DNA of 64,000 bases from an uncultured Candidatus Saccharibacteria bacterium (GCA_964386905.1 CAYLUP010000002.1:522-64521), one strand, 5' to 3'. Positions 13,442 to 41,251 are shown, counted from the stretch's first letter. Notes: generated by a model from the sequence alone, not told the origin. Numbers and translations: made by a program.

Positions 13442-13508
13442 TCGTCTTTTTTGTCACACGATGTTTTGTGTTTTGTTATACTATATATTATTCATTCTTT
13501 ACATACAT

Positions 13509-16619: not shown

Positions 16620-16770
16620 ACGAAACCCGCGTTGCGGGTTTTTGTTTTGTTGACATAATAAAATTTTAGTGTTGAAATATTTCTCTTTCATCACACTTTG
16701 GATTTCAGGCGTAATATATATCATAGAACAGGCATGATTATTGCCTCGTCTACTATAATTATCGCATATT

Positions 16771-17655
16771 ATGAAAAAGACATATTTTATTATTCCTGTG
16801 CTTTGTGCGCTTTTGCTTCAATCGACAGCTGCTTTTGCTGAAAGCCGAAAGGATGTTGGGCGACCAGAAGATAAAGTTCGTCCAGCTGTAACGCGTGAGG
16901 AAGAAAAACGACCAACCCCAATGCCTCTTGGTGATAAGGATTGGAAAAGAAACGATGCTGTAAAAGGGAAGGCATTTGTGGGAATTGTGAATACGGTGGG
17001 CACGACGAGTTTTACCATGAAGCTTACCGCACGTTATGAGGGTGCATCAACAGGAACAGTGTTTACTGTTGATACAACAAATGCGAAGTTCTTACAGTCT
17101 GGAATCGTGGAATCTGGAACTTCGACTGCAACAACAACAGGGAGCTCAACTCCAGCAACAATCTCACAGCTTGTTTCGGGTGCACGCGTGCTTGTGAATG
17201 GAACGATCGAAGGAACAACAATTACTGCAAAGAATGTGCACATTGGTATTCCCGCACGTGCAGAAAAACGCGTTGAAGATCGCAAGGAAAAACGCCCAGA
17301 AGTGCGTCCAATTGATTTAATTCAGCAGGGAGATGGGCAGCCAGTCATTGTCGGAATAGTAGGAACTACCACTGGCTCATCGACAACGTTCGTGCTTACA
17401 AACAAGAATAATGTTGCATACACAATTGATGCCGCAAATGCGAAGGTGTATCTCAAGGCCGCAACAGGTACAGTTGCTGACATAAAAACCGGAGATCGTG
17501 TTGTTGTACAGGGTACAGTGACCGGAACATCGATCGTTGCAACGACAGTGATTGATCATGGGCAAGTTGCTCTCAAGCGTATTGATGATAAGACGGGTCT
17601 TGTAAAACCAACAATCGCAGAGAAGGTGAAGGGTTTCTTCAAGAAATTCTTCTAA
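16771..17655 (+). CDS. Secreted protein with two tandem about 90-aa internal repeat domains
   Basis: Signal peptide; repeats FVGIVNTVGTTSFTMKL...ARVLVNGTIEGTTITAKNV and VIVGIVGTTTGSSTTFVLT...DRVVVQGTVTGTSIVATTV. Confidence 0.5.
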   Translation: MKKTYFIIPVLCALLLQSTAAFAESRKDVGRPEDKVRPAVTREEEKRPTPMPLGDKDWKRNDAVKGKAFVGIVNTVGTTSFTMKLTARYEGASTGTVFTVDTTNAKFLQSGIVESGTSTATTTGSSTPATISQLVSGARVLVNGTIEGTTITAKNVHIGIPARAEKRVEDRKEKRPEVRPIDLIQQGDGQPVIVGIVGTTTGSSTTFVLTNKNNVAYTIDAANAKVYLKAATGTVADIKTGDRVVVQGTVTGTSIVATTVIDHGQVALKRIDDKTGLVKPTIAEKVKGFFKKFF

Positions 17656-17662
17656 TAGAAAA

Positions 17663-17692
17663 ACACACAACAATACTGTTGTGTGTTTTTTG
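17663..17692 (+). terminator. Rho-independent terminator
   Basis: acacacaacaatactgttgtgtgt followed by tttttt. Confidence 0.6.
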
Positions 17693-17739
17693 TGTATTGT
17701 TTTCTGTTCTTTAGAGATAAAACTTGTTACAATGAAGAC

Positions 17740-19557
17740 GTGAAGTCGGTGTTCTTGAAAATACTGCCGATTCTTTTTCTCGTAGGAGCGTCCTCTGTCT
17801 TCTATGCTTTTTTCTATGCGGAAAAGGTTGGTGCACAGGTCTTTCGATTGTTTCCAGAATCGTGTGAGGGTGGATTTGATAATCCTGATCGTGCAGCAGG
17901 AGTGTACCAAGTGTCAACACTTGATCCGGATTTTATCACAACCGGAAATTCAGCGATTCTTTTTGATGGAAAATCAACACAAATGATCTGTCAGTCTTTC
18001 CGCGGAGATGTTCTGCCAAATACCCTTCCGAAGCAGATTGCAATAAAAATAGCCTGGAAGTACGGATATGACAAACAGGTTCTTCGTATGGAGGAAGAGG
18101 GTGTTGCTGTCTCTGCCAGTGGAACAACGGTATTTATCGAAGAAAGTGCACCGCTAGAGATCGCCCATGATATAGACACACCTATCGCTGATTCAACTGA
18201 ATCGGGTGTTGTGAACGCTTCTGAGGCAGTGGTTGGGGACACGGTTCGCATCCCAGAGGACCAGAATTCCACCCTTGATGATCCAGATCCTTCTTCTAGT
18301 GAAGGGGGGATACCTCCTCGTGAATCTCCAGTATTGAGTGAGGACAATGCTTCTCCTCTGCAAATAGAAGAAGCCACGCAGATAGTAGAGCCTGTTCCTG
18401 ACGTGTTGTCACCAACACAAGAACCCGCAGCTTTTGATGGCGCGATTCCACCCGCAGGAGAGTCTTCCCAAGAAGTATCTGCGCCCGCGCCAGAGCCTGC
18501 TCCGACTCCGACCCAGGAGGCCTCAAGCGTTTCTTCTCCTGACAGTGGTACAGTTTCTTTTTTAGAGTGGTTTATCGCGCGTGCATATGCAGAAGAGCTT
18601 GCTGTTGGTTCATCCCCCGAGTCTTCCTCTACTGCTCTTCTTGTGAAGACACCTCTCCCCGAAGATTCACAATCTCCTGTTGCTGATCAAGGGCAAATAG
18701 TAGACGCATCTCTTCTCACTTCTTCAACTTCTCCAGATACAGTCTTGGTGTCTTCATTGGATGAGGGTTCTTCTGCATCAGGAACCTTGTTATTCAATTC
18801 TGAGACAACGTTGATGGCATCATCAGCTTCATCTTCACTCACACAAGAGCCTGCCGTGTTCAACGAACAAGTGGTTCGGACATCTGGGCCAATAGAAGTG
18901 CTCTATTCCTTTGACGGTGACAGTTGGGAATCTGCCGGTTTTGCAGACCCGGAGAATTACCTGGAACATACATTTCCTCTCGTACTCGCGTCATCAACAA
19001 CGTGGGAAGAGCTTGCTTCTGTGCGTGTTGCAATTCGTACACATGCAGAAATAAATGATGTGCCACTTCTTATTCTTGTTGATGGCATGTGGCTTGAGGT
19101 TGCATATGAAGATACCGTTGACGATCCACACCCTATGCCGTCAGAATATCGAGGAGATGTTTTTCTTGGTTCTGTGACAAGCGACACAAAGACTGCACTT
19201 CTCGTTGAGAGACCGCTTCGCATTGGAACTACAACTGCATCTACAACAGAGTTGTGGCTCAGGGAAGGATTTGCGTCGAGTACGTCGTGGAAGTATGTTG
19301 CTGGAAGTGAACGAGTCGCCTCAACTACAAAAATATTTTTCCGAGAAGGACATATTGTCTGGATTGGCATCGATCGCGCACTCTGGGTTTTCAATCCATT
19401 AAGTGATGCTTTTGATTCGCTATCAATAGATCCGGTGGAGCCAACAGAGTATCTCTTGTCTGGACCTACTGGAGAAAAAACTGTTGTGTATGTAACGCAG
19501 CCGGATGATGTTGTTGCTTTTGTTGAATATGTGCCTGTTCCTCTCAATCTAGAATAA
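17740..19557 (+). CDS. Membrane-anchored extracellular protein with long acidic Ser/Pro/Thr-rich low-complexity region
   Basis: Probable GTG start at 17740, since the track ATG at 17683 lies inside the upstream terminator; N-terminal TM; about 250 aa of S/P/T/E/D-rich linker; globular C-terminal region. Confidence 0.45.
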   Translation: MKSVFLKILPILFLVGASSVFYAFFYAEKVGAQVFRLFPESCEGGFDNPDRAAGVYQVSTLDPDFITTGNSAILFDGKSTQMICQSFRGDVLPNTLPKQIAIKIAWKYGYDKQVLRMEEEGVAVSASGTTVFIEESAPLEIAHDIDTPIADSTESGVVNASEAVVGDTVRIPEDQNSTLDDPDPSSSEGGIPPRESPVLSEDNASPLQIEEATQIVEPVPDVLSPTQEPAAFDGAIPPAGESSQEVSAPAPEPAPTPTQEASSVSSPDSGTVSFLEWFIARAYAEELAVGSSPESSSTALLVKTPLPEDSQSPVADQGQIVDASLLTSSTSPDTVLVSSLDEGSSASGTLLFNSETTLMASSASSSLTQEPAVFNEQVVRTSGPIEVLYSFDGDSWESAGFADPENYLEHTFPLVLASSTTWEELASVRVAIRTHAEINDVPLLILVDGMWLEVAYEDTVDDPHPMPSEYRGDVFLGSVTSDTKTALLVERPLRIGTTTASTTELWLREGFASSTSWKYVAGSERVASTTKIFFREGHIVWIGIDRALWVFNPLSDAFDSLSIDPVEPTEYLLSGPTGEKTVVYVTQPDDVVAFVEYVPVPLNLE

Positions 19558-19565
19558 TAGTACTT

Positions 19566-22500
19566 ATGTTTTTCCATTCATATCACTCGAAAAGAATACG
19601 TGCAGTATGGTCAACCATGCTTCTTTTTGGATTGTGTTGTGGAATACTGTACGCTCCTCATCTGCTCACTTTTTTTGCAGGAGGTAGCGAGGTTGCGATG
19701 AAAAAGGCAGAGGCATCATACCAGTTTGCCCCAACAGGGGGAGGCATTGTGATGGGCACAGCGCCCGCTGTACGTGCTGCAACAACCGCAGCGACCGAAG
19801 GGGTGAATGTGGGAGACTGGAAGGGTGCGAAGGCCGACGACAATTTGCACTTTGGTATCACCTCAACGGCATCCGGATATAATGCGTATCTTGATATTGG
19901 AAATGTTGAGTTGCATGGAGCAAACAAGTTCATTATAGAGACAGAGTTTGATCTCGACGCGACAATTCCTCAGACCCGCGTGCAAATTTGCGACTGGGTC
20001 TCGTCAACGGGCGTGGCGAATGCTGCTGATGCACAGTGTACTGGTGGCGGTTGGAGGAATTTGAATCTGAACGACACAGCCATAAATACTGCAACGTATG
20101 GAAGATATAGTTGGCATGTGTATGATGGGTATTGGAATAGTACTGCGACAACGAAAATTGCGACACCATTGTCAAATTTCGTGAACGGCTCCCAATCAAT
20201 TCGTGTTCGGTATTTTTCTACAACAAGTAGCGCTGCCTCTATTGTACACATTGATTATTTGCGTGTGTTTGCAGTGGTAAACCCCGTATATGCTCCTGCT
20301 GGGGTGACACAGATTTCAGGGGGAACGCCTCTTGGTGATTATTCTCTTGCCGCAATGGGCGGTATGGGCCAGACGGGATCGGATAACGCGTACTTTCGGG
20401 TTCCTGGCACCGTAGGTGCTCCGTCAGACTTCTACTATACCTTTGCAAACGTGAAGTATTTTGCTGGTGCAAACACAATTCTCTTTCGTGCGGAGCATTC
20501 CTGTTCTGGAACAAATGCAGGGGTGACATATCTTCCAAAGATTTTTAATTTTAACTCTCAGGTATGGGACGATCTAACGTCTACTCCTATTGCGTGCTCG
20601 ACGACAGACGCAACCAATGCATGGGCACGAAGTAATATTTCAATGGGGGACTATGTCAGTAATGGAGAAGTACGTGTCGGGTGGTATGCAACAACAAACA
20701 GTACATTGGAAATCCGCAATGACATCGCGTACATTATGATAGGAGCGGTCACAAATGGTACCAGCGAGATCACTTTTGGAACAAATGCTGGTGGCTCTGC
20801 GGCGAGCACACAAGACCTCGATATGACAGGTATCAGTAGTACATGGGACATTCAGTCTGTTGATGAATCAAACACGTTCAGTACGCCAATATATGCCTTT
20901 GATAATGATGCTGATGCAACCGTTGAGGAAGCATCGGCTGCAAATATCGATTTCTCTCTTCGTCCTCCTACGAACGCTGCGCTTGCGGGAATTTATTTTG
21001 CGGGAAGGTACCGCTCGGGAACTGCTGGGACCGTGAATCTTGGTGTCGCTGATATGGCTTCTCGAACGAATACACAAGGTGGCTGGACGCAGGTTGGTGC
21101 AAACGGAACAACGGCATTATTGTATTCCGATAACATCAGTGTGAGAGCGGTCACTTCAGGAGGGTCTGCTGGTCTGTATCTCAACCCAGAAGATTTTATT
21201 ATGGCAGAAACAGGGCGCATGAAGATGCGTTTGCGCACATCGACATCTGGTGCGACGACAAATAATTCTATTGCGCAATGGGATTTCGCGATGCTATCGC
21301 TTTCTTGGATTGAAGACATTGAGCATCGTTCTGGTGATTCATCATATACGCCATCGGGTGGTGGAATTGTGACTGGAACAGGCCCTGCTATTCTTGCTGC
21401 CACAGCAGCAAATACCGAAGGAACGAATCTTGGGAGTTGGCGTGCAACAAAAGCGGATGATAATTTTCATTTTGGTATTACGTCGACTGCATCAGGATAT
21501 AACGCATATATCGATTTTGATGATGTCTACCTCAATGGTGCGAATATTATGCACATCCAAACGGAGTTTGACCTTGACGCGACTGCTCCGCAGACCCGCG
21601 TGCAAATTTGCGATTGGGTCTCATCAACGGGTGTGGCGAATGCCGCTGATGCACAGTGTACTGGTGGAGGCTGGAGAAACGTAAGTCCGAATGATGCGCT
21701 GATTACTACAACAACACCAACTGCGTACCATTGGCAAATCTATGATGGATACTGGAACAGCACTGTAGTTGCAAAAATTTCAACTCCGTTAACAAATTTT
21801 GTGGATGGAAATAATACGGTCCGCATTCGATACTATTCCACAACAAGTAGTGCCGGTTCGATCGTCCATATTGACCACGCTCGCATTATGCCTGTTGTGA
21901 ATCCGGTGTATTCCGCATCTGGAGCAACACAGATTACTGGGGGGACTCCTCTCGGCGATTATTCTCTCACGGCTATTGGTGGTGCAGGGCAGACGGGGTC
22001 GGATAATGCATATTTTCGTGTTCCTGGAACCGCGGGTGCTGTTTCTGATTTTTACCTTTCATTTCAAAATGTAAAAACATACCCTGGGGCAAATGCAATC
22101 CTCGTACGTGCAGAGTATTCATGCTCTACGACTGGCATTTCCCATCGGCCTAAGATATATAACTTTAACTCGTCGAGCTGGGAGGATTTGACGACTGCTT
22201 CCATTGCATGTTCGACAACAGATGCTACGAATGCCTGGGCAAAAGGGAATGTGACAATTGCAAACTATATTTCGAATGGAGAAATTCGTATTGGATGGCG
22301 AGGACTGGCAAACGGAACACAGGAAATTCGTATTGATCTTGCATACGTGATGATTGGTACGGTGAACAACGGAACATCTTCAATAACCTTTGGAACGAAC
22401 TCCGCAGGAACTGCTGCAAATACTCAAACGCTTGATATGAATGGGACTGCGAGCACATGGAATATTGCTTCGGTTGATGAGTCGAATACTCTCGGTTTTG

Positions 22501-23426
22501 CAATAAACGCAAACGATAACGACAACGATGCGACTGTTGAAGAGGCTACGGCTGCTAATATGGACTTTACGTTGCGAGTACCAGAAAATGCATTCCCTAC
22601 AGGAGTATTTTTTGCAGGACGATATATGTCGGGGGTAGCGGGGACGGTAAATCTTGGTGTTGCAGACTATCGAGGAAAAACGAGTACCCAGGGGGGCTGG
22701 GTTCAGGTTGGTGCAAATGGAACAACTGCTCTGACCTATTCTGATAATATTACAATGGTGTCGGTTGCTTCGGGTGGCGCTGCTGGCTTGTGGACGAATC
22801 CGCGAGACTTAGTGAATGATACGGCGTCTACTATGAACATGCGCTTAAGAACATCTCTCTCTGGAGCAACAACAAATAATTCTGTTGCGCAGTGGGACTT
22901 CGCAATGCTGTCTTTGCAGTGGATAGAAACGCCTCCGCCACCATCGACGTTATCCTTTAGTATTTCAGATAACACGATTGGATTCGGAACACTCACTGCC
23001 GCACAAATGCGTTTCGCTTCAGGTGGTGGAGGGGGAAGTACATTGCAAATTTCCGCACATACTATTTCTGCCGCTTCAAATGCACCTGGTGGATACGTGG
23101 TAACGATTGATGGAGAGACGTTGACGTATGGGCCATATGAAATTTCTGCAGCAGGTGCAACTCCGATTATACCAACAGCTGGAATTGAGCAATTTGGTAT
23201 CAATGCAATAAAGACGTTCACGACAGGGTCTGGGTCTCCGCTCTACCCGTACTCTGCAGGTTTTGCTTTTGATATTGGGAATTTGCCGTCCCCAATTCTT
23301 GCAAACTATACAAACGACAACATTGAGGACACGTATGATATGTATTATTTGGCGAATATCTCTGCGGATACCGAAGCGGGAGAGTACGCTGCAGTGGTGA
23401 CATACACAGCAACAGCAACATTTTAA
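19566..23426 (+). CDS. Giant surface protein (1286 aa): N-terminal TM/signal, two about 540-aa tandem repeats, C-terminal pilin-like (SCPU/Csu-like) domain
   Basis: The repeat unit recurs with 1620-nt period (19739 vs 21358); the C-terminal about 150 aa (LSFSISDNTIGFG...YLANISADTEAGEYAAVVTYTATATF) is shared with the next two genes. Confidence 0.6.
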   Translation: MFFHSYHSKRIRAVWSTMLLFGLCCGILYAPHLLTFFAGGSEVAMKKAEASYQFAPTGGGIVMGTAPAVRAATTAATEGVNVGDWKGAKADDNLHFGITSTASGYNAYLDIGNVELHGANKFIIETEFDLDATIPQTRVQICDWVSSTGVANAADAQCTGGGWRNLNLNDTAINTATYGRYSWHVYDGYWNSTATTKIATPLSNFVNGSQSIRVRYFSTTSSAASIVHIDYLRVFAVVNPVYAPAGVTQISGGTPLGDYSLAAMGGMGQTGSDNAYFRVPGTVGAPSDFYYTFANVKYFAGANTILFRAEHSCSGTNAGVTYLPKIFNFNSQVWDDLTSTPIACSTTDATNAWARSNISMGDYVSNGEVRVGWYATTNSTLEIRNDIAYIMIGAVTNGTSEITFGTNAGGSAASTQDLDMTGISSTWDIQSVDESNTFSTPIYAFDNDADATVEEASAANIDFSLRPPTNAALAGIYFAGRYRSGTAGTVNLGVADMASRTNTQGGWTQVGANGTTALLYSDNISVRAVTSGGSAGLYLNPEDFIMAETGRMKMRLRTSTSGATTNNSIAQWDFAMLSLSWIEDIEHRSGDSSYTPSGGGIVTGTGPAILAATAANTEGTNLGSWRATKADDNFHFGITSTASGYNAYIDFDDVYLNGANIMHIQTEFDLDATAPQTRVQICDWVSSTGVANAADAQCTGGGWRNVSPNDALITTTTPTAYHWQIYDGYWNSTVVAKISTPLTNFVDGNNTVRIRYYSTTSSAGSIVHIDHARIMPVVNPVYSASGATQITGGTPLGDYSLTAIGGAGQTGSDNAYFRVPGTAGAVSDFYLSFQNVKTYPGANAILVRAEYSCSTTGISHRPKIYNFNSSSWEDLTTASIACSTTDATNAWAKGNVTIANYISNGEIRIGWRGLANGTQEIRIDLAYVMIGTVNNGTSSITFGTNSAGTAANTQTLDMNGTASTWNIASVDESNTLGFAINANDNDNDATVEEATAANMDFTLRVPENAFPTGVFFAGRYMSGVAGTVNLGVADYRGKTSTQGGWVQVGANGTTALTYSDNITMVSVASGGAAGLWTNPRDLVNDTASTMNMRLRTSLSGATTNNSVAQWDFAMLSLQWIETPPPPSTLSFSISDNTIGFGTLTAAQMRFASGGGGGSTLQISAHTISAASNAPGGYVVTIDGETLTYGPYEISAAGATPIIPTAGIEQFGINAIKTFTTGSGSPLYPYSAGFAFDIGNLPSPILANYTNDNIEDTYDMYYLANISADTEAGEYAAVVTYTATATF

Positions 23427-23427
23427 T

Positions 23428-23452
23428 AACACGCCCGTTTGGGCGTGTTATG
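23428..23452 (+). terminator. Hairpin terminator
   Basis: aacacgcccgtttgggcgtgtt hairpin; downstream T-run is weak. Confidence 0.45.
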
Positions 23453-23460
23453 CTATATAT

Positions 23461-24510
23461 ATGATACACAGAATATGTTTTTGTTTCTCATTCTTCTTTT
23501 GTATGAGCATCGCATTTTTTGTTCCCGCTCAAACGCTTCTCGCTGCATCATTATTGCAGCTCTCTGACATGCTGTCTGCCCAACGCCCAAATGCTGAATC
23601 GAGTCATAGAATCCAGTTTCAAACTCCGACGGGTATTAATGCTCCTGGAGATACCATCGTCATCACCTTTCCTGCGGACTTTAATTTTACAGGCAAGGAT
23701 GCGACATTCGTAAATCTTTATCATGGTGCGACTGGCGGCGAAACAGAAGAGTATATTTCGACAACACCAACACTTGGATTTTGGGGCGCTGCTTTTTCTG
23801 GAACGCAGAATCGAGTGCTTACATTGACTCCTCCAGCTGATGGGGTGGGGCAAGCAGAGATTTTTGCGAATGAAATTGTCCGAGTAAGGTTAAATCCGAC
23901 TAACGCCCTTAATCCCTCGACTGCAGGAGACTATATCGTTGCCATCTCTGGCGGTTTTGGAGATACGGGAAGTATATTGGTCCCCATTATTAGTGATGAT
24001 CAGGTCTTCGTTTCTGCAACAGTTCCCCAAGCGCTTTCATTTTCAATTTCAGACAATAGTGTTGGTTTTGGTCCACTGTCTGCTTCTGTATCTCGTTATG
24101 CAACCGGAGATGGGACAGGGAGTGCTACTCCTGTCGTTGCGCATACAATAACCGCAAGCACCAATGCATCCGGTGGGTATAGTATTTCCCATGTGTCAGG
24201 GACGTTAACAAGCGGAGCGCATAGTATTGACGCCATTGGAGGAGTCCCATCAAGCCCAATTCCAGGATCAGAGCAGTTTGGAATTCGTGGAGACGCTGCG
24301 GGTGGAAAAGGAGTGATGTCAACACGGTATGGATCTGCTCAATATGCCCTCGATGCGAGTGGATTTCCAGATACTTTTGCTTATACTATGTTTGCAGGTC
24401 CAACTCCTGAGACAACGTATTCAATATATTATCTGGCAAATATTTCATCTGGTACCGAAGCAGGTGAATATGGTGCTCCTATAACCTATGTCGCAACTGC
24501 AATGTTTTGA
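23461..24510 (+). CDS. Secreted pilin-like protein, paralog 2 (N-terminal domain + SCPU-like C-terminal domain)
   Basis: Signal peptide; shares TPTG..A.DTI.ITFPADF.FT and ...SFSISDN..GFG...YLANIS.GTEAGEYGAPITYVATAMF with its neighbours. Confidence 0.55.
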   Translation: MIHRICFCFSFFFCMSIAFFVPAQTLLAASLLQLSDMLSAQRPNAESSHRIQFQTPTGINAPGDTIVITFPADFNFTGKDATFVNLYHGATGGETEEYISTTPTLGFWGAAFSGTQNRVLTLTPPADGVGQAEIFANEIVRVRLNPTNALNPSTAGDYIVAISGGFGDTGSILVPIISDDQVFVSATVPQALSFSISDNSVGFGPLSASVSRYATGDGTGSATPVVAHTITASTNASGGYSISHVSGTLTSGAHSIDAIGGVPSSPIPGSEQFGIRGDAAGGKGVMSTRYGSAQYALDASGFPDTFAYTMFAGPTPETTYSIYYLANISSGTEAGEYGAPITYVATAMF

Positions 24511-24592
24511 CATTATCCACATAGTGATGTGGATTTTATGTTATACTGAAATCAATAACATGTTCCATCATGTTGCGAGAAATTACTATACA

Positions 24593-25648
24593 ATGTTCTT
24601 CTTTATGATCAAAAAATATTCAGTATCTATCACGGCCCTTACACTTCTGGTGATTCTCTCTGGGTTACCGCAGTTTGTATTTGCTGCAGCACTCACAAAT
24701 CTTTCAGATACAATGTCTTCTGCAAAGATTAATACCGTATCGAGCCACGTCATTCGCTTTACAACGCCGACTGGTGCAAATGAAGCAACCGATACCATTA
24801 TCATTACTTTCCCAGCAGATTTTGATTTTACAGCAAAAGCTATTGGTTCAGTAACGTTTACACATGGCGCATCGACAGGCCTTGAAACAACTGAAACACT
24901 TGCCGCGGCTCCATCCGCTACTGCATGGGGGGCTGTCTTTTCGGGAACTGAAAATCGCATTTTAACACTCACAGCTCCAACAGATGGAACGGGAACTGCT
25001 GTTCTTGCCCCAGGAGATAAAGTTATTTTTACATACTCCAGCGCAAACTCTACAAATCCAAGTACTGCAAACTCCTACTCAGTTAGCATTGCGGGAACTT
25101 TTGGTGACACTGGTTCAATTTTGGTTAATGTTATCAATGATGACCAAGTTCTTGTTTCTGCAACTGTTCCACAATCACTGACCTTTAGTATCTCAGATAA
25201 CACAATTGGTTTTGGTTCATTAACTTCAGCATCGGCACGCTTCGCGACAGGTGATGCAAACGGGAGCGGAACAGAGACGGAAGCACATAATATTATTGTC
25301 GGAACGAATGCAGCAAATGGATACACGGTAAATCTTGCCGGTTCTACATTGACTTATGGTGGAAATACAATTACTGCGATTGGGGCAACAAACAGTGCAT
25401 CAACTCCAGGAAGCGAACAGTTTGGTTTGCGTATGAGTGCGTCTGGTGGGACTGGGGCAGTATCCGCACCATACGCAGCAGACGGATTCGCCTTTGACTC
25501 AGCGGCATTTCCTGATCAGATTGCATCTGCCGCGGGAGCATCTGCAAACACGACATACTCGGCACGCTATCTTGCAAACATCAGCCCATCGACTGAGGCT
25601 GGAGCGTATACTGCAACATTGACATATACTGCAACTGCAAACTTTTAA
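24593..25648 (+). CDS. Secreted pilin-like protein, paralog 3
   Basis: Start at internal Met (MFFFMIKKYS) giving a signal peptide; about 45 % identical to paralog 2 throughout; ends ...TYTATANF. Confidence 0.55.
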   Translation: MFFFMIKKYSVSITALTLLVILSGLPQFVFAAALTNLSDTMSSAKINTVSSHVIRFTTPTGANEATDTIIITFPADFDFTAKAIGSVTFTHGASTGLETTETLAAAPSATAWGAVFSGTENRILTLTAPTDGTGTAVLAPGDKVIFTYSSANSTNPSTANSYSVSIAGTFGDTGSILVNVINDDQVLVSATVPQSLTFSISDNTIGFGSLTSASARFATGDANGSGTETEAHNIIVGTNAANGYTVNLAGSTLTYGGNTITAIGATNSASTPGSEQFGLRMSASGGTGAVSAPYAADGFAFDSAAFPDQIASAAGASANTTYSARYLANISPSTEAGAYTATLTYTATANF

Positions 25649-25670
25649 AACCGGCTATGGCCGGTTTTTG
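25647..25670 (+). terminator. Rho-independent terminator
   Basis: aaaaccggctatggccggttttt. Confidence 0.6.
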
Positions 25671-25712
25671 CTATTGACTATTTATATAAGTAAGAGAAAA
25701 TAGAGATATCAT

Positions 25713-26696
25713 ATGAAGCACATATTTGCTCTTACCCTCATTATTACTCCACTCTTTTTTTGTGTGCCTAGCGCGGATGCGTTAACTGTTTCGCCTGCAA
25801 AACAAGAAGTTCGTGCGAATCCTGGACAGGTATTGAAAGGTGAAATCGAATTGTTTAATGAACAGAATGAGACGAAAACCTTTTATACCTCATTTGAGAA
25901 TTTTGAGTCACGAGGTGATTCAGGTGCACCATACTTTATTGGTGCACAGGGTGGCCTGGCAACATGGATGAAATCTGAGGAATCTGTCACAATCGCTCCT
26001 GGTGACCGCATGAAGGTGCCATACACGATTACGATTCCTCAATCCGCAAAACCGGGTGGGTATTTTGCTGCACAGTTTTTCGGGACTGAAAAACCAAAAA
26101 CAGGTGATGGAAACCTTGCCATTGGAGGAAAGATTGGCGTCCTCTTTTTGCTTCGTGTTAATGGTGACGTTGAGGAGGCGGCGGGCGTAACTGGCTTTAC
26201 TACTGAGCAGAATCAACGTTTCTTTGTCTCTACTCCAATCCGATTTGAATATTTTGTGAATAACACAGGTGGTGATCGCGTTGTTCCAAAAGGAACTGTT
26301 GTCATTCGAAATTCTTTTCGAATGACAACAGAGAAGATATCTGCAAATGACAAAGAGGGGAGTGTCTTACCAAATGGCTCAAGAACATTTCCGGTATGGT
26401 GGGGTGACCCAGCAGCTTCTCTCAATAATGTATGTGATTCCAAAGATGATACATGCGTTCAAGGTGGTGGATTTTTTAGCCGTGTTGCATATGAGTGGAA
26501 GAATTTTCACTTCGGATGGTACTCTGCAACACTTGATGTTGCTTGGGGGGAAAAAGGTTCAACGATGAATGATACAATCCATTTCTTTGTACTTCCATGG
26601 CATCTTCTCCTCGCTCTTGCTGTTATCGCACTCGTGCTTTGGGGCCTTTTGAAAAAATATAATGCGTATATTATCGCACGTGCTGCAAAACGATAA
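25713..26696 (+). CDS. Secreted beta-rich protein with C-terminal TM anchor (chaperone/DUF916-like cell-surface protein, unknown function)
   Basis: Signal peptide; LTVSPAKQEVRANPGQVLKGEIELFNEQNETKTF strand pattern; C-terminal hydrophobic helix followed by KKYNAYIIARAAKR; translationally coupled (TAATG) to the dockerin gene. Confidence 0.4.
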   Translation: MKHIFALTLIITPLFFCVPSADALTVSPAKQEVRANPGQVLKGEIELFNEQNETKTFYTSFENFESRGDSGAPYFIGAQGGLATWMKSEESVTIAPGDRMKVPYTITIPQSAKPGGYFAAQFFGTEKPKTGDGNLAIGGKIGVLFLLRVNGDVEEAAGVTGFTTEQNQRFFVSTPIRFEYFVNNTGGDRVVPKGTVVIRNSFRMTTEKISANDKEGSVLPNGSRTFPVWWGDPAASLNNVCDSKDDTCVQGGGFFSRVAYEWKNFHFGWYSATLDVAWGEKGSTMNDTIHFFVLPWHLLLALAVIALVLWGLLKKYNAYIIARAAKR

Positions 26697-27739
26697 TGTT
26701 CCTTCTTTATCGAAAATTTTCTTTTCGTGTCGCACTCGCCTTTGCGTTTTGTGTACCTCTCGCCGCACTTGCTGCCATTACCGTAGAAATTACGGCTACT
26801 GTCCCTGGGTGCGGCGATAGTGTTATTGGCGTTGGTGAGCAGTGCGACACAACAAATCTTGGGGGTGCGACATGCTCTACGCTTGGGTATGCCTCTGGCG
26901 TTTTGTCATGTTCCAGTGTGTGTACGTATGTTACAAGTGCATGCAGTGTGACGCCGGTAACGCCTCCGAGTGGTGGTGGTGGCGGCGGCGGATATTATGC
27001 TGTTCCAGCAACAAATATCGTCTTTTCCGGGAAAGCATATCCACGAAGTACGGTGACCATATTAAAAGATGCTCAAGTTGTTGCAACGACCATTGCCGAT
27101 GCACAGGCTGAATTCCAAACAACGATATCGGGTATTTCATCGGGAAATTATAATTTTAGTGTCTACTCAGAGGATGATCGCGGTGTGCGCTCCTCGCTTT
27201 TGTCTTTTCCTATAAGTGTGAGTTCTGGGGTGACAACAAAAATTGGAAATATCTTTATTGCGCCAACACTTTCGGCAGATAAAACTGAAGTTCGAAAGGG
27301 TGACGATATTGTATTGTTTGGAAGAACAACCCCAAATGCAGAGGTGTCTATCTCAGTTCATTCTTCAGTTGAGATGTTTTTCAAGCGACTCGCTGATGCA
27401 AGTGGTGCCTACCTTTTTCGTATTAATACACTCCCACTAGAGTATGGGGCACATGCAGCAAAAACAAAATCAGCGCGCGATGAGGAGCTGAGTTCCTTCT
27501 CGCAATCAGTTGGTTTTACTGTTGGAATAAAAAATATTGCATCTCTGTCGCAACCTGGCGTGCATCAGCAATGGTCAAAAGGTGATGTCAATAAGGATGG
27601 CCGTGTGAATCTTGTGGATCTTTCTATTGTGGCGTATTGGTATAAAAATGCGTCTTACCCAAAGCATCTTGATTTAAATGGAGATGGCCATGTGAATCTG
27701 GTCGACTTAAGTATCCTTATGTATTTTTGGACTGGCTAA
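26696..27739 (+). CDS. Secreted Cys-rich protein with Gly7 linker, two Ig-like beta domains and a C-terminal type-I dockerin
   Basis: C-terminus GDVNKDGRVNLVDLSIVAYWY...DLNGDGHVNLVDLSILMYFW = two canonical Ca-binding dockerin repeats; N-terminal about 50-aa domain with 8 Cys. Confidence 0.8.
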   Translation: MFLLYRKFSFRVALAFAFCVPLAALAAITVEITATVPGCGDSVIGVGEQCDTTNLGGATCSTLGYASGVLSCSSVCTYVTSACSVTPVTPPSGGGGGGGYYAVPATNIVFSGKAYPRSTVTILKDAQVVATTIADAQAEFQTTISGISSGNYNFSVYSEDDRGVRSSLLSFPISVSSGVTTKIGNIFIAPTLSADKTEVRKGDDIVLFGRTTPNAEVSISVHSSVEMFFKRLADASGAYLFRINTLPLEYGAHAAKTKSARDEELSSFSQSVGFTVGIKNIASLSQPGVHQQWSKGDVNKDGRVNLVDLSIVAYWYKNASYPKHLDLNGDGHVNLVDLSILMYFWTG

Positions 27740-27740
27740 T

Positions 27741-28589
27741 ATGCGTACATATTTCATTGTTATTTTTATGGCACTCTTTGCTCCCGCAAGCGTGTTCGCC
27801 TACGAGTTTCGTGCAGAGGTGCGCGAAACACAGATTGGGCCAGGGTCTACGGTTATTGTTGATCTGAAACTTGCAGCGCGGACACTAGTAAATGCGTGTG
27901 AAGGATATCTTCAGTATGACAGTTCCGCATTTGATATCGTTCGTATTTCTTCTGGAAATTCTGTTGTTAATTTTTGGATCGAGGAGCCAAAAGTCACTGA
28001 GTACGGGATTCGATTTTCAGGAGCAACTCCTGGTGCATTCTCTGGGCAAGATAATCACGTGTTGAGTGTGGCATTTCGTGCGAAGCGAGAAGGCATTTTT
28101 GATTTTGTTCCCCATTCTTCTGTCGTATATTTGTCTGACGGGCATGGTACATCACTTGTGCCTCGAGCTCACGCAGCAGCTGTCTCCGTTGATGGTTTTG
28201 CTCGTAGTGAGCATGTCGTGGATGGAGACACTGAGCTTCCTGAGGATTTTACCCCATTTATTGTTGAGCATCCTGATATGTTTTCTGGAGAGAAAACTCT
28301 TATCTTTGCGACGCAAGATAAAGGATCGGGAATCTCACATTATACTGTCAAAGAGGGATTGCTCGGGTGGTATCGCACAGCATCTTCTCCCTATCTCTTG
28401 AAACATGATGCATTGCATCGTACAATATATATACGAGCCTATGACCATGCGGGGAATATCCGCACAGTCATCATTCCCGCTACTGTACCGCGTTCAGCAT
28501 TCTCTTGGTGGATGGTTGGTGGACTCACCGTTCTTACCTGTTTCGCACTTTTGACAATAGTATGGAAAAAATATTTCATCAGACGATAA
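27741..28589 (+). CDS. Membrane-anchored cohesin-domain protein 1
   Basis: Signal peptide; cohesin-like LKLAARTLVNACEGYLQYDSSAFDIVRISSGNSVVNF...HVLSVAFRAKREGIFDF; C-terminal TM plus KKYFIRR stop-transfer. Confidence 0.7.
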   Translation: MRTYFIVIFMALFAPASVFAYEFRAEVRETQIGPGSTVIVDLKLAARTLVNACEGYLQYDSSAFDIVRISSGNSVVNFWIEEPKVTEYGIRFSGATPGAFSGQDNHVLSVAFRAKREGIFDFVPHSSVVYLSDGHGTSLVPRAHAAAVSVDGFARSEHVVDGDTELPEDFTPFIVEHPDMFSGEKTLIFATQDKGSGISHYTVKEGLLGWYRTASSPYLLKHDALHRTIYIRAYDHAGNIRTVIIPATVPRSAFSWWMVGGLTVLTCFALLTIVWKKYFIRR

Positions 28590-30280
28590 TTGCTTTTTGC
28601 TTTCTTGCATTCCCATGCATATCTTTTGCTGCAACCCTGTCGCTTGCACCGTCAGTATTTTCGCCACAGGTTGGGAGTACTTTTGTCGTTAATGTGAATG
28701 TGTCGACTCCTGATAAGGTGATGAATGCCGCTTCAGGAGTTCTTTCGTACGACCCTGCGCTTCTTGAAATTATCTCTGTGTCCAAGACAGGGTCTATCGT
28801 GTCCTTGTGGGCAGAGGAGCCACTATTTGACAATACTAGCGGCCGCATGAGTTTTGAGGGTATTTTATATGCGCCAGGGTATTCTGGCCCGTCTGGCAAA
28901 ATTTGCGCAATTACATTTAAGGCAAAAGCCGTTGGCAGTACAGTACTTCGCTTCACAAATGGCTCGGTGTTGGCAAGTGATGGATATGGGGAGAATATTC
29001 TTTCTTCCATGAGCCCGCTCTCTCTTGCTGTTGGACAGCCCACCAAGAAGCAAGTTCCTATCTCGCTTGCTGGCGAGGTAGAGAAAGAGCCTGTTCGAAT
29101 ATTTGGGCGTGCAGTTGCAATTACATCAAGTTCACACCCAGATGCGAACGCGTGGTATGCAAATAATTCTCCCGTGTTTTCTTGGGTTCTCCCCGAGGGT
29201 GCACTCGAAGTTAAGACATTAATTAGTCGTCTCAGCTCACGAAATCCAACTGTCCCGTACATTCCACCAATTGCTGAGAAAAAGGCGGAAAAAGTGATTG
29301 ATGGGACACATTATTTTAGTCTTCAGGTTCGGACGAGGGATGGTTGGTCTCCAACATCACGATATCAGGTGAACATTGATACTGTCCCGCCAAATAAATT
29401 TACTGTCGCTATTGTAAACGAAGACCGAGATAAAAAAACTCCCCCACATATTGCATTCGAAACACAAGATGCACTTTCTGGTGTCAGTCATTATGAAGTG
29501 CGTGTTGATGATGGCGAGGTTATGCGGACATCTTCTCATGACATGAAAGATCCGTTTGCGATTCCCGCACTTCCTCCTGGTGGTCATATTGTTACTGTTT
29601 CCGCCTTTGACCACGCAGGGAATATGACGCAAGCAGCACTAGATTTTACGGTAGATGCCATTCCTTCTCCTAAAATCATTGCGCTTCCACAGGTTGTCTA
29701 TGGGGGAGAGCGGTCAGAGATTCGAGGAATCTCATCCCCGTTTGATACTGTTTTCGTGAGATATTCTGATGGTAATACCTTTATACATGAAGAATCAGTA
29801 ACGACGGGGGAGGCTGGGGCATTCGTGATACCAGTAACCTCAAAAATTCCACGTGGTTCATATATAGTTTCTGCGTATGCTGTTGATCGGTCTTTGTCGC
29901 GAAGTTACGAAACAACACCAGCTATCCTCTCTCTCCGGCCGTTTTATGTAAAGGCGTCATTTCTTGCATTTGCGCTTTTTGGCGTTTTGTTCCTTGTTGC
30001 TATTGGGGCAACTATCGCTATGTGGTTATATGCGCGTCGACACGGAGAACGTGTTGCACGTGTTGCTCTTATGCGCATTCGATATGCTGAACAGGAGACA
30101 GAAAAGGCCTTTGATATTTTAAGAGAGGAAATTATTGAACGTGTTGCGCTGCTTAAGGCAAAGAAGCCAAAAAGGAAATATACTGCAGAAGAAGTACACT
30201 TCCTTGAGACACTTGAGAGCTATCTTGGAGAGGCGAAGGATGTCATCGTTTCAGATGTTCGAAAAGTTATTGAAAAATAA
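28562..30280 (+). CDS. Membrane-anchored cohesin-domain protein 2 (cohesin + Ig-like domains + TM + cytoplasmic coiled tail)
   Basis: N-terminal cohesin: VVNVNVSTPDKVMNAASGVLSYDPALLEIISVSKTGSIVSLW...KICAITFKAKAVGSTVLRF (compare CipA cohesins); TM at about aa 480; 28-nt overlap with the upstream gene. Confidence 0.75.
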   Translation: MEKIFHQTIIAFCFLAFPCISFAATLSLAPSVFSPQVGSTFVVNVNVSTPDKVMNAASGVLSYDPALLEIISVSKTGSIVSLWAEEPLFDNTSGRMSFEGILYAPGYSGPSGKICAITFKAKAVGSTVLRFTNGSVLASDGYGENILSSMSPLSLAVGQPTKKQVPISLAGEVEKEPVRIFGRAVAITSSSHPDANAWYANNSPVFSWVLPEGALEVKTLISRLSSRNPTVPYIPPIAEKKAEKVIDGTHYFSLQVRTRDGWSPTSRYQVNIDTVPPNKFTVAIVNEDRDKKTPPHIAFETQDALSGVSHYEVRVDDGEVMRTSSHDMKDPFAIPALPPGGHIVTVSAFDHAGNMTQAALDFTVDAIPSPKIIALPQVVYGGERSEIRGISSPFDTVFVRYSDGNTFIHEESVTTGEAGAFVIPVTSKIPRGSYIVSAYAVDRSLSRSYETTPAILSLRPFYVKASFLAFALFGVLFLVAIGATIAMWLYARRHGERVARVALMRIRYAEQETEKAFDILREEIIERVALLKAKKPKRKYTAEEVHFLETLESYLGEAKDVIVSDVRKVIEK

Positions 30281-30310
30281 AACACGACAACGTCGTGTGT
30301 TATTTTTGGA
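30281..30310. terminator. Bidirectional terminator
   Basis: acacgacaacgtcgtgt followed by tattttt; convergent genes. Confidence 0.55.
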
Positions 30311-31175
30311 AAATATCCCACAACTCGTTAGAAGAATAAAAGAGAGCCCCAAGTTCTCCGTACGTGTATACGTGACCACCTGTTTCAATTTGAGCACCGC
30401 CAATGACAGGTGATTCTTTGGGGGATGATTTCTCAAAACCCAGATTAAAGAGTGTTGTGAGAACGCCGGCATTGCCTGAGATGTCATATCCGGCCTTTTT
30501 CCATTGTGCAGTAATCTCTTGGATAAATATTGCAGTGTAGAGATAGGAAAAATAATGATCTTTCGCATCTGTAAGGCGTTGATAGAGTTGTTCTCCCGAG
30601 CGTGTCTGCGTGGGGTAGGCGATAAGTGGCGAAATGTGATTTCCTGGATATAAGGGAGAGGAAGAATCTAATGCATACCTTTCTATTGCTTCAGCAGTTT
30701 CTTGTTTAATCCCAGTTACGCCAAGTGAAAATTGCGAGAGAGAGCCGAGAATTTTTAATGGTTCAAAATATCTTTTAAACACCTCTCTTTCTGCTGTGAA
30801 GAAGCGAATTTGTTCGGGGACAACTATGCTTGCAATAATGCGTGGGGATGCACCAGTCTCCTTCGCAACACGATTGATAATGTGAGCGTCCTTTCGAAGT
30901 CCTTCACGAACAACGGCCCACTCTGCTGTTTCATTCCAAGAGCACACAGACTCCTCTTCGGAGATGCAGGTTCCTGAATGTATTGAGTCATCTGGGGTGT
31001 GTTGTGTTTGTGTCGTAGGCGCTGTGCTCTGGAAAAATTTGTTTCGTTCTGAAATAGATCCGCGAACATTGAAGAGTCCAAAATGCATTGCGACAAATAC
31101 AAAAGTAAAGAGAAGCCCAATTCCAGCGAATATGAGCGTGAGGATAATCACCGTTGTACGAAGATGTCGATGCAT
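30300..31175 (-). CDS. Membrane-anchored hypothetical protein
   Basis: About 291 aa from MHRHLRTT; one N-terminal TM then a soluble domain; unknown family. Confidence 0.4.
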   Translation of the reverse strand: MHRHLRTTVIILTLIFAGIGLLFTFVFVAMHFGLFNVRGSISERNKFFQSTAPTTQTQHTPDDSIHSGTCISEEESVCSWNETAEWAVVREGLRKDAHIINRVAKETGASPRIIASIVVPEQIRFFTAEREVFKRYFEPLKILGSLSQFSLGVTGIKQETAEAIERYALDSSSPLYPGNHISPLIAYPTQTRSGEQLYQRLTDAKDHYFSYLYTAIFIQEITAQWKKAGYDISGNAGVLTTLFNLGFEKSSPKESPVIGGAQIETGGHVYTYGELGALFYSSNELWDIFQK

Positions 31176-31232
31176 TGCTGCACGATTATGACGTATTTTA
31201 ACTCTTTTCGCAATGGCGTATACTATGGATAT

Positions 31233-31760
31233 ATGCGACGAGTCATTGTCCACGATAAGATGCAGGATGGGTATGTATATGTGTGTACAGAGCCTGTAGG
31301 GAAAAACTTTCATCCTGATTTCCGCCCAGATCTCAATCCGCAAGAACTTCTTTCTCTCGGTGTTTTTGGTGGACGCTATCTCCGTGATTGTCGACAGGAG
31401 TTTCCTTCATCGTGGTTTTCTCATGGACGTTTCCATGAAGAGGGTATCCCAGGGCATTCTCCTGCGTTGAATTGTTTTGGTGTTGATGCAAGCCAACCTC
31501 TTTCCGTATGGAGAGACAAGGGGTGGATCAACCATGCGCACGACCCTCGAGGGTGGTTTCAGTGGTATTGCCGTTATTATATGGGGCGGAGACTGGAAGA
31601 TGAGGATAATCGACAAATACAGCGCTGGAAAGCGATGAGAAGACACCTGGCACAGCTGACGAAACATTGCTCTGGAAAAGGGGATGGATGTAGGAAAAAA
31701 CAGCGCCAAGCACTCCTCCATTGGGCGTATGATACGAGAGATGCACATACTCGGCACTAG
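31233..31760 (+). CDS. Basic Trp-rich hypothetical protein
   Basis: About 175 aa (MRRVIVHDK...); GWFQWYCRYYMGRR; no recognised family; the start is uncertain (31188 possible). Confidence 0.35.
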   Translation: MRRVIVHDKMQDGYVYVCTEPVGKNFHPDFRPDLNPQELLSLGVFGGRYLRDCRQEFPSSWFSHGRFHEEGIPGHSPALNCFGVDASQPLSVWRDKGWINHAHDPRGWFQWYCRYYMGRRLEDEDNRQIQRWKAMRRHLAQLTKHCSGKGDGCRKKQRQALLHWAYDTRDAHTRH

Positions 31761-41173: not shown

Positions 41174-41251
41174 AAACGGGAATTCCCGTTTTTTGTTTGC
41201 CTCAGTTTGCGTTGTGTTGCGTGCTTGAACGAACGGTCACGTTTTCGTGGT

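Follow-up and report, generated by a model that had tools for sequence, protein, structure and literature searches.

What surface structure do nine consecutive + strand genes of a Patescibacteria genome encode, and how would it be held on the cell? The locus lies in a stretch of 64,000 nucleotides, here called the window. A first-pass annotation read it as a tip-adhesin-like giant, subunits resembling pilins, a putative assembly factor anchored in the membrane and a cohesin/dockerin module, with neither sortase nor usher, and added that no described system has this combination. The architecture holds, and the claim of novelty stands in part: the core is already described as the Pam pilus, in a 2026 preprint and in NCBIfam models, whereas cohesin and dockerin are never mentioned in that preprint (bioRxiv 10.64898/2026.03.03.709456).

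Pam pili are thin surface filaments of the ultrasmall CPR bacteria, known from cryo-EM structures as donor-strand filaments (bioRxiv 10.64898/2026.03.03.709456). In Candidatus Mycosynbacter amalyticus (Saccharimonadia) the system comprises PamA/B/E pilins, a PamT tip, PamC/D chaperones and a PamR tether, the last with an N-terminal strand, two Ig/FnIII domains and its own C-terminal TM helix, by which tethering is proposed to occur (bioRxiv 10.64898/2026.03.03.709456). Judged by its named homologs, the host of the present locus belongs to the Parcubacteria/Paceibacteria (Minisyncoccia) within the Patescibacteria (CPR).

Extent and conservation of the locus

All of the annotated + strand ORFs (G1-G9) were present at the coordinates given (9/9). 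Hydrophobic N-terminal segments occur in all of them and matches to enzyme families in none, in agreement with their description as secreted or membrane-anchored proteins with no enzymes among them. Three true starts lie downstream of the ORF starts (G2, 17731; G5, 24605; G9, 28562). The features are, in order:

16622-16642: terminator-like hairpin upstream of G1
16771..17655, + strand: G1, secreted, two weakly similar halves; probably not in the system
17658..17691, + strand: terminator-like hairpin dividing G1 from the operon, 15-bp stem plus T run
17731..19557, + strand: G2, N-terminal TM/signal anchor, long S/P/T/E-rich spacer, C-terminal globular part; GTG start at 17731
19566..23426, + strand: G3, signal/TM segment, two head modules of ~540 aa (19689-21314 and 21315-22928), Pam C-terminal acceptor domain (CTD; 22947-23423)
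23461..24510, + strand: G4, predicted second polymerisable pilin paralog; N-terminal beta domain, donor linker DQVFVSATVP (23998-24027), Pam CTD (24037-24507)
24605..25648, + strand: G5, predicted major shaft pilin; N-terminal beta domain, donor linker DQVLVSATVP (25142-25171), Pam CTD (25181-25645)
25713..26696, + strand: G6, PapD-like two-domain chaperone candidate, C-terminal TM helix (26598-26690)
26696..27739, + strand: G7, signal peptide, donor-like strand ITVEITATVP (26777-26806), Cys-rich module (26807-26947), two Ig-like domains, type I dockerin (27578-27736)
27741..28589, + strand: G8, short membrane anchor; signal peptide, cohesin (27837-28088), Ig-like domain, C-terminal TM helix (28506-28562) with 8-aa tail
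28562..30280, + strand: G9, long membrane anchor; signal peptide, cohesin (28661-28984), Big_13/OmpL47-type Ig domains, TM helix (29960-30016), cytoplasmic tail of ~87 aa (30017-30277)
30282..30298: bidirectional terminator-like hairpin closing the operon

Eight of the nine genes, G2-G9 (17731-30280), form one unit, an operon. The last four are tightly spaced, with a 1-nt overlap between G6 and G7, a 1-nt gap between G7 and G8 and a 28-nt overlap between G8 and G9, as expected from the translational coupling annotated for them. G1, which had been counted with the locus, is probably a separate gene outside the pilus system, because it lies between terminator-like hairpins and has no homolog in our comparison set of 45 related loci from distinct species. 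The tandem repeat ascribed to it is seen as a weak likeness between its two halves (31% over 118 aa, E 9e-6), and it matched no family in Pfam or NCBIfam. Neither an usher nor a sortase was matched by Pfam in the nine genes or in the flanking genes scanned.

The genes are strongly syntenic in the 45 related species, not scattered, and run from the tip protein through the major pilin and the chaperone to the dockerin protein and, last, the cohesin proteins. The G5-type pilin lies directly upstream of the chaperone in 38/38 loci, and the G7 homolog directly downstream of it in 42/43, often with overlapping or abutting codons, followed by one to three cohesin genes. Independent gene calls gave the same order in L046. 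One locus, L044, has pilin, chaperone and tip with G7-G9 absent.

Pilin-family subunits, candidate tip protein and candidate chaperone

The C-terminal domain of about 150 aa that G3 had been said to share with two paralogs belongs to a curated pilin family. G3, G4 and G5 pass the NCBIfam (release 20) model NF058581, "Pam pilus system pilin subunit" (CPR_Pam_pilin_C; curated cut-off 55 bits), with 58.3, 64.9 and 84.7 bits, respectively. The domain common to the three is modelled as an Ig-like beta-sandwich, so that family and model both indicate a pilin-like fold. The SCPU family (PF05229), named at first pass as a family to search, gave no match; indeed G3-G5 have no Pfam match at E<=0.1 and no PDB sequence match. 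Proteins with this domain end in ...TATxF/Y, and thus in an aromatic residue, in 72/72 cases, and none of the 72 has an LPXTG tail. Sortase-dependent Gram-positive pili offer a poor comparison: the CTD proteins have no LPXTG sorting signal, and no sortase was matched in the genes scanned with Pfam.

Upstream of the CTD, the motif DDQVxV[ST]ATV is kept in 39/39 G5-type pilins. AF2 predicts G5, at moderate confidence (pLDDT 75), as a pair of beta domains, residues 48-176 and 192-345, joined by a linker with pLDDT<50, i.e. unpaired in the monomer. Homologs of G5 are 64-82% identical among the best 120 of 1015. The linker of G4 scores 27.4 bits with a position weight matrix (PWM), and G4 is an extra copy, since the related loci have only one or two CTD genes each.

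G3 has the giant size first reported (1286 aa), together with an internal duplication absent from the earlier annotation: residues 42-583 and 584-1121 are 66.8% identical. The donor linker (DDQVxVSATV) is absent from G3, in which the residues before the CTD read WIETPPPPST. In the related loci, too, the variable first gene has no such linker, except in L019, where it is a contig-truncated major pilin. Since the CTD is present and the linker motif missing, G3 is a tip-adhesin candidate and a putative functional analogue of PamT. The PamT equivalog model NF058579 (cut-off 240) reported no match to G3 and gave G4 and G5 31-48 bits. Full-length G3 homologs occur among the related loci only in L029 (59%) and L021 (33%). 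G2 has the N-terminal TM segment and S/P/T-rich composition noted at first pass. A G2-like gene lies directly upstream of large tip proteins (at least 500 aa) in 12/14 loci vs 1/17 loci with small first genes (p = 7.6e-6); by this distribution, G2 is an accessory gene that travels with large tip proteins.

G6, annotated as a beta-rich protein with a C-terminal TM segment, resembles PapD in its AF2 model (pLDDT 84.7), with two beta domains and a TM helix at the C-terminus. As modelled it shows the architecture of PamC/PamD, to which it is likened by fold and layout. Membership in DUF916 (PF06030), also named at first pass as a family to search, is not supported by the sequence, with 13.6 bits against a GA of 27.3, and a G6 profile matched no PDB sequence.

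Faint PF06030 matches do occur in six of 31 members of the G6 family, and they bear on a reading in which G3-G5 are monomeric and their common CTD is held at the cell surface by strand insertion from a WxLIP-like G6, with no polymer formed. WxL clusters of Firmicutes consist of a small WxL protein, a large WxL protein and WxLIP (DUF916-DUF3324-TM) (PMC10599100, PDB 9i1y). Their layout is the same as here, a small protein and a large one with a variable N-terminus sharing a CTD, beside a TM protein of two Ig domains for which insertion of a hairpin into that CTD is predicted (PMC10599100). We nevertheless regard this reading as improbable, for the CTD passes the curated model of Pam pilins, whose filaments are known from cryo-EM, the locus proteins have neither a WxL motif nor a Pfam match to the WxL domain, and the PF06030 score and the PDB search of G6 speak against it. 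Moreover, the linker strand is strictly conserved in shaft-type genes and absent from tip-type genes, a pattern that fits polymerisation and not monomers. WxL proteins are also described as peptidoglycan-bound monomers, not filaments, and their clusters are without a cohesin/dockerin module.

The logic suggested for G3-G7, donor-strand complementation and exchange, is that of classical and archaic chaperone-usher pili (Pap, Fim, Csu, CFA/I), with which the locus would share an acceptor-only tip adhesin, a donor-only terminator analogous to PapH and the aromatic C-terminal residue of every subunit. Unlike those systems, there is here no outer membrane and, among the genes scanned, no usher, the chaperone candidate is membrane-anchored, the proposed donor strand is an inter-domain linker and not an N-terminal extension, and sequence similarity is undetectable.

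The dockerin protein and the cohesin proteins

G7 was rightly called a dockerin protein: Dockerin_1 (PF00404) is matched in two stretches with 44.7 bits, well over the GA of 22.9, and its sequence shows two near-identical Ca-binding repeats, DVNKDGRVNLVDLSI and DLNGDGHVNLVDLSI. Big_6 scores 33 bits. The protein ends in the dockerin and has no C-terminal TM helix. At its mature N-terminus is a 10-residue strand that resembles the donor linker of the pilins, and a 45-aa Cys knot follows. The pilin-linker PWM reaches at least 10 bits in 26/45 G7 homologs vs 15/2472 other ORFs, with the best match at the mature N-terminus in 38/45 homologs, and the homolog in L027 retains the strand though its Cys-rich module is replaced. 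In one protein (P0471) a pilin N-domain and linker are fused to the body of G7, with no CTD, and a G8-type cohesin-TM gene comes next. These results should be read with some care: because P0471 has the linker-like strand and the G7-type strand in tandem, the latter could belong to the fold of G7 itself instead of being donated, and no covariation of pilin linker and G7 N-strand was seen within genomes (p = 0.45).

The annotation of two cohesin proteins stands for G9 at the level of the single sequence (Cohesin 36.4 bits vs GA 24.1; Big_13 32.1 bits), whereas G8 alone stays below the threshold (19.5 bits) and qualifies at family level, where 14/36 members have Cohesin matches with E<=0.01 (best 2e-9) and the G8 profile matches scaffoldin cohesins in the PDB (E 0.003-0.03). 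A C-terminal TM segment is present in 37/38 short cohesin proteins; a TM segment also occurs in 32/34 long ones, and the tail behind it has a median length of 84 aa.

Throughout the window and the 45 loci, dockerin is confined to G7 homologs and one inserted gene in L041, and cohesin to homologs of G8 and G9. The loci whose G7 homolog has a dockerin are exactly those with cohesin genes downstream: both are present in 36 loci, either alone in none, and both are absent from six (36/0/0/6; Fisher p = 1.9e-7, which is optimistic because those six loci go back to no more than about four independent events). From this co-occurrence we infer a contact between dockerin and cohesin. In two dockerin-less loci (L017 and L030) the G7 homolog has a C-terminal TM helix in place of the dockerin, and the representative library holds four more TM-ended relatives; the homologs in L031, L035 and L038 have neither.

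Cohesin-dockerin pairs anchor cellulosomes through scaffoldins such as SdbA and OlpB of C. thermocellum and ScaE of R. flavefaciens, and non-cellulosomal pairs also exist. The likeness lies in a single cohesin on a cell-bound protein that would receive a dockerin-bearing partner, in the two near-identical Ca-binding repeats of the dockerin, and in a large extracellular assembly attached non-covalently. The differences are that the anchor here is a TM helix and not SLH domains or a sortase, that the docked partner is a proposed pilus tether and not an enzyme scaffold, and that glycoside hydrolases and a multi-cohesin scaffoldin are absent.

The TM-ended variants also bear on the possibility that G8 and G9 are an assembly platform replacing the usher, which would recruit G7 as initiator and couple assembly to a cytoplasmic factor through the ~85-aa tail of G9. 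Such a role would account for two distinct, conserved cohesin proteins, for the constant length of the cytoplasmic tail and for the missing usher. We consider it very improbable. Since the TM-ended G7 variants do without cohesin genes altogether, assembly does not require cohesins; according to the Pam preprint, chaperones are enough by themselves, and there is no pore-forming or ATPase domain.

Stalks of two Ig domains and a dockerin are not peculiar to G7. In other proteins of the representative library they bear many unrelated N-terminal heads, one of them (P0409) a head typical of small tip genes, and in L041 a 963-aa beta-helix dockerin protein is inserted beside the cohesin genes. Given these unrelated heads and the extra dockerin protein of L041, the cohesins may be general display anchors.

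It could accordingly be supposed that G2-G6 make a Pam-type pilus and G7-G9 a separate display platform for small Ig-stalked proteins, the two not physically joined and co-transcribed because both serve host contact, with the pilus held by the TM-anchored chaperone or something else. We think this unlikely. The variety of heads, including that of P0409, the inserted protein of L041, the lack of covariation and the existence of L044 are all in its favor. However, the G7 homolog adjoins the chaperone gene almost without exception, its only "cargo" is the short strand matching the pilin donor linker and then the Cys knot, P0471 has a real pilin N-domain and linker in place of the G7 N-terminus, and the published tether PamR has the same size and layout as the TM-ended variants of G7.

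A Pam-type pilus with a proposed cohesin-dockerin tether

Our results favor, with reasonable though not high confidence, the explanation that G2-G9 encode a Pam-type pilus in which G7 is the terminator and tether, docked non-covalently on the TM-anchored cohesins of G8 and/or G9. The core is assigned to the Pam system because the CTD of G3, G4 and G5 passes NF058581 and G6 has the PamC/PamD architecture. Common to both systems are the two-domain pilins joined by a conserved linker strand, a PapD-like chaperone with a C-terminal TM helix, a tip subunit that is, here putatively, acceptor-only, a (here proposed) tether made of an N-terminal strand and then Ig-like domains, the lack of usher and sortase (here among the genes scanned), and restriction to CPR. 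The present system differs in several respects: its proposed tether, likened to PamR by layout, ends in a type I dockerin and not in a TM helix; two cohesin-bearing TM proteins and the G2 accessory gene are added; it has a single chaperone gene, not two; the candidate tip is a protein of 1286 aa with duplicated heads, in contrast to the 25.6-kDa CTD-only PamT; the lineage is Parcubacteria/Paceibacteria and not Saccharimonadia or Microgenomatia; and the window genes scanned included none for ATP synthase.

According to our hypothesis all components would be exported by Sec. G6, held in the membrane by its C-terminal helix, would cap the open Ig-like CTD of each subunit and hand the subunit over by donor-strand exchange. 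G3, having an acceptor CTD and no donor linker, could occupy only the distal tip, where it would expose its two large head modules, the products of a recent duplication, presumably to recognise the host; G2 is the likely partner of tips of this size. The subunits that combine the donor linker (DDQVxVSATVPQS) with an acceptor CTD, G4 and especially G5, would polymerise head-to-tail into the shaft. G7, which lacks an acceptor domain but has a donor-like strand at the mature N-terminus, would take the cell-proximal end of the filament, and its dockerin would bind the cohesin of G8 and/or G9, both fixed in the membrane by C-terminal TM helices. The cohesin-dockerin joint would thus take the place of the tether's own TM helix, as proposed for PamR. 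Such tethering has real comparative support in the co-occurrence of dockerin and cohesin, the substitution by a TM helix and the donor-strand-like N-terminus of G7.

In its fullest form, to which we give about even chances, the proposal is of a donor-strand-exchange pilus fastened to the cell by a non-covalent cohesin-dockerin joint, with G7 as a donor-only, dockerin-bearing terminator and G8 and G9 as TM-anchored cohesin sockets (G9 with its conserved cytoplasmic tail), the joint being evolutionarily interchangeable with a plain TM helix and the sockets perhaps also taking other dockerin-stalked adhesin heads. If true, this would be the first physiological role for the widespread and so far unexplained cohesin and dockerin genes of Patescibacteria, and would suggest that Parcubacteria have a modular system of surface appendages, possibly ones that can be released or exchanged.

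A probable Pam-type pilus operon

The C-terminal domains (CTDs) shared by the 1286-aa tip candidate G3 and the pilins G4 and G5 scored 58.3, 64.9 and 84.7 against NCBIfam model NF058581, "Pam pilus system pilin subunit", and all three passed its curated cut-off of 55 bits. We regard this as the decisive result. We read the locus as an operon for a Pam-type donor-strand pilus, and so as one of a known kind.

Pam pili were first reported in 2026 from one cultured Saccharimonadia parasite, with a survey covering mainly Saccharimonadia and Microgenomatia, and the filaments of Ca. Mycosynbacter amalyticus were solved by cryo-EM (bioRxiv 10.64898/2026.03.03.709456). In that system, which lacks an usher, the two-domain pilins PamA and PamB consist of a beta-sandwich N-terminal domain (NTD), a linker strand and a CTD, and the linker strand fills the open CTD of the neighbouring subunit by donation. 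PamC and PamD are PapD-like chaperones with a C-terminal TM helix, the tip PamT consists of a CTD only, and PamR, a 32.8-kDa "pilus tether" in the supplement, starts with an N-terminal strand, continues with two FnIII-like domains and ends in a TM helix. ATP synthase genes neighbour the published Pam genes (bioRxiv 10.64898/2026.03.03.709456), whereas none were seen among the window genes scanned.

The nine successive plus-strand ORFs that the first-pass annotation had reported at 16771-30280 (G1-G9) are present. All have an N-terminal hydrophobic segment, with a C-terminal one as well in G6, G8 and G9, and no enzyme family was detected in any of them (Pfam, NCBIfam), as had been claimed. Sequence membership in SCPU and DUF916, two families named for checking, was rejected with Pfam. 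The inclusion of G1 in the group did not hold: it has terminator-like hairpins on both sides and no homolog in any related locus, and we therefore limit the operon to G2-G9, with G1 as a neighbouring gene. The true starts of G2, G5 and G9 lie later than the mechanical ORF starts; G6 and G7 overlap by 1 nt, and G7 and G8 are spaced by 1 nt.

Hairpins and corrected gene starts
16622-16642, terminator-like hairpin before G1
17658-17691, terminator-like hairpin after G1
17731, +, GTG start of G2, shortly after a terminator-like hairpin with a 15-bp stem
24605, +, start of G5
28562, +, ATG start of G9, which overlaps G8 by 28 nt
30282-30298, terminator-like hairpin after G9, closing the unit

G1 itself (16771-17655) is a stand-alone secreted protein between hairpins, in which a K/E/R/P-rich segment leading into a T/G-rich beta region occurs twice; it has no family match in Pfam or NCBIfam. 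G+C content is unremarkable over the whole window, and a sigma-70 promoter scan gave no excess (26 found, 26.4 expected in shuffled sequence). Cell-wall-related genes lie near the operon at 13251-14288 (PG_binding_1), 30300-31343 on the minus strand (weakly DUF1402-like) and 41207-42640 (SLT_2 transglycosylase).

Pilins, tips and distribution

In a moderately confident AF2 model of the major pilin G5 (pLDDT 75) the chain forms two beta domains, and the linker DDQVLVSAT is left unpaired. Fold searches with this model returned generic Ig-like matches only, which agree with a pilin fold without singling it out. Searches of PDB sequences with G5, the candidate PapD-like TM chaperone G6 and their profiles gave nothing useful in a PDB set that apparently lacks Pam pilin structures. 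The linker, as DDQVxV[ST]ATV, is kept in 39/39 G5-type pilins, and the last residue of each of the 72 CTD proteins is aromatic. A WxL-like complex that forms no filament is less likely, and fits the data less well than a Pam-type pilus.

Related loci were collected from 45 distinct species (L001-L045) in one scan of species-representative genomes, and their gene order was read by six-frame BLASTP and home-made HMMs. The conserved order is a variable first gene (300-2100 aa, with a Pam CTD at its end), a G5-type pilin, G6, G7, a G8-type cohesin and a G9-type cohesin protein. In 38/38 loci the chaperone is preceded by the pilin, and in 42/43 it is followed directly by a G7 homolog; a Nomurabacteria contig with independent gene calls showed the same order. 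With one or two CTD genes in related loci, G4 counts as an additional paralog in the window.

The first gene is without the linker, the one exception, in L019, being a contig-truncated major pilin; this absence would fit an acceptor-only tip. Genes resembling the S/P/T-rich spacer gene G2 occur in 12 of 14 loci with large tips versus 1 of 17 with small first genes (p = 7.6e-6). G3 has no Pfam match, and its head consists of two ~540-aa modules with 66.8% identity at the protein level (residues 42-583 and 584-1121; nt 19689-22928). In these halves, ~1.6 kb each, the entire head module has been duplicated in tandem, fairly recently, which could allow recombination or head variation.

At E<=0.001, G5, G6 and G7 have about 750-1000 homologs each (G6 741, G7 888, G5 1015), every counted homolog being one 90%-identity cluster, and the best 120 of the 1015 G5 homologs show 64-82% identity. 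Homologs with a CPR taxon name are all Parcubacteria-type (Paceibacterota, Kaiser-, Taylor-, Nomura-, Wolfebacteria, Minisyncoccia), and judged from these the window locus is from a Parcubacteria-type CPR bacterium. Together these lineages form one of the largest and least cultured CPR groups. The titles of many contigs among the 45 loci read "uncultured Candidatus Saccharibacteria", "Gammaproteobacteria" or "Bacillota" despite their Parcubacteria-type locus; they seem to be placeholders or the outcome of mis-binning, and would make taxon counts misleading. The locus L044 (8887-14378, labelled Peregrinibacteria) has pilin and chaperone without G7-G9, and so may be a minimal form of the system; on its opposite strand lie a 748-aa duplicated tip protein with a CTD and a G2-like Pro-rich protein.

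A proposed dockerin-ended tether and its cohesin sockets

Pfam scores of the last three genes
G7, Dockerin_1, 44.7 (GA 22.9)
G7, Big_6, 33 (GA 27.6)
G8, Cohesin, 19.5 (GA 24.1), sub-threshold
G9, Cohesin, 36.4 (GA 24.1)
G9, Big_13, 32.1 (GA 27)

Although G8 falls below threshold, 14 of its 36 orthologs match Cohesin at E<=0.01 (best 2e-9) and its family profile matches scaffoldin cohesins in the PDB; judged by its sequence family, G8 is cohesin-like. The published tether is TM-anchored, whereas the window locus has a putative dockerin-ended tether, G7, and two TM-anchored cohesin proteins as its putative sockets, G8 and G9, which we propose would replace it. With this combination the Pam pilus would take a new form, in which the dockerin would bind the cohesins. 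Neither cohesin nor dockerin is mentioned anywhere in the Pam preprint (bioRxiv 10.64898/2026.03.03.709456), our literature search on cohesin/dockerin and CPR pili found no earlier description, and type IV pili are the only pili mentioned in the Minisyncoccus archaeiphilus paper. The order of the subunits, the donation of a strand by G7 and the binding of dockerin to cohesin are inferred from the architecture, from synteny and co-occurrence, and from fusions or substitutions that occur naturally.

In 36 loci the G7 homolog has a dockerin and cohesin genes follow downstream; in six both are missing, and no locus has one without the other (Fisher p = 1.9e-7), the six representing approximately four independent events. 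Among these dockerin-less homologs, two (L017, L030) show the PamR layout with a TM helix at the end, and one (L028) has a hydrophobic tail; the other three (L031, L035, L038) have neither. Across the window and the 45 loci, cohesin is confined to G8/G9 homologs and dockerin to G7 homologs, bar one inserted protein. The latter (L041, 12030-14918) is a right-handed beta helix of 963 aa with a dockerin at its C-terminus. Its gene separates the G7 homolog from the cohesin genes, and more than one partner may therefore fit the sockets.

Almost all cohesin proteins are TM-anchored. The short, G8-type ones have a tail of ~8 aa after the TM segment, and the long, G9-type ones a tail with a median of 84 aa in those that have such a segment (32 of 34). 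This long tail is cytoplasmic and of conserved length in G9 (30017-30277) and across the related loci, and no family match covers it. The cohesin proteins could possibly form an assembly platform, a reading that fits the data less well than sockets for the tether.

The link of G7 to the filament would lie at its mature N-terminus, which is conserved among homologs (A|ITVEITATVPGCGDG). A pilin-linker PWM reached >=10 bits in 26/45 G7 homologs versus 15/2472 other ORFs, with the best position exactly at the mature N-terminus in 38/45; in the window, G7 scored 10.8 bits and all non-pilin proteins <=4.2. The strand is kept in L027, where the Cys module is replaced, and the L016 homolog is reduced to strand, Cys module, Gly linker and dockerin. 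Among relatives of <=700 aa in a representative library, 94/109 end in a dockerin and 4/109 in a TM helix. Library protein P0471 joins a pilin N-domain and linker to a Cys/Ig/dockerin body without a CTD (N-domain: BLASTP E 2e-5, hhalign 86.5%, NTD HMM E 4e-5), and its gene is followed by a G8-type cohesin-TM gene; with the caveat that P0471 has a linker-like and a G7-type strand in tandem. Pilin linker and G7 N-strand showed no within-genome covariation (p = 0.45). As a further caveat, the Ig x2 + dockerin stalk bears unrelated heads in other proteins. That G7-G9 form an independent display module is possible, but this fits the data less well than a pilus tether.

On such a stalk, library protein P0409 carries an "NAHVG...Y..K.C" head typical of small first (tip-like) genes in many loci; apparently the same head can either sit on a pilus CTD or dock directly. 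In L004 (10976-11932) an extra gene between chaperone and dockerin protein is a G7/G6 chimera, with the N-terminal half of G7 (strand VEITALVP, Cys module, Big_6) followed by the second domain and the TM helix of G6. The Cys-rich module of G7 (residues 38-84, window 26807-26947), CGDG..GEQCDG..C..C..C, shows faint DUF4215 similarity in a relative, and is repeated 7-31 times in many larger library proteins of up to ~3800 aa.

Overall, this locus represents a highly conserved relative of the Pam pilus in Parcubacteria-type lineages, and the proposed anchoring mechanism is concrete, testable and unlike the one published. Away from cellulosomes, cohesin-dockerin pairs are, to our knowledge, common in genomes and mostly without function; a role as pilus socket, if true, would be a new use of the module. 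The variable tip genes, beside conserved shaft, chaperone and tether, are a likely site of host specificity.
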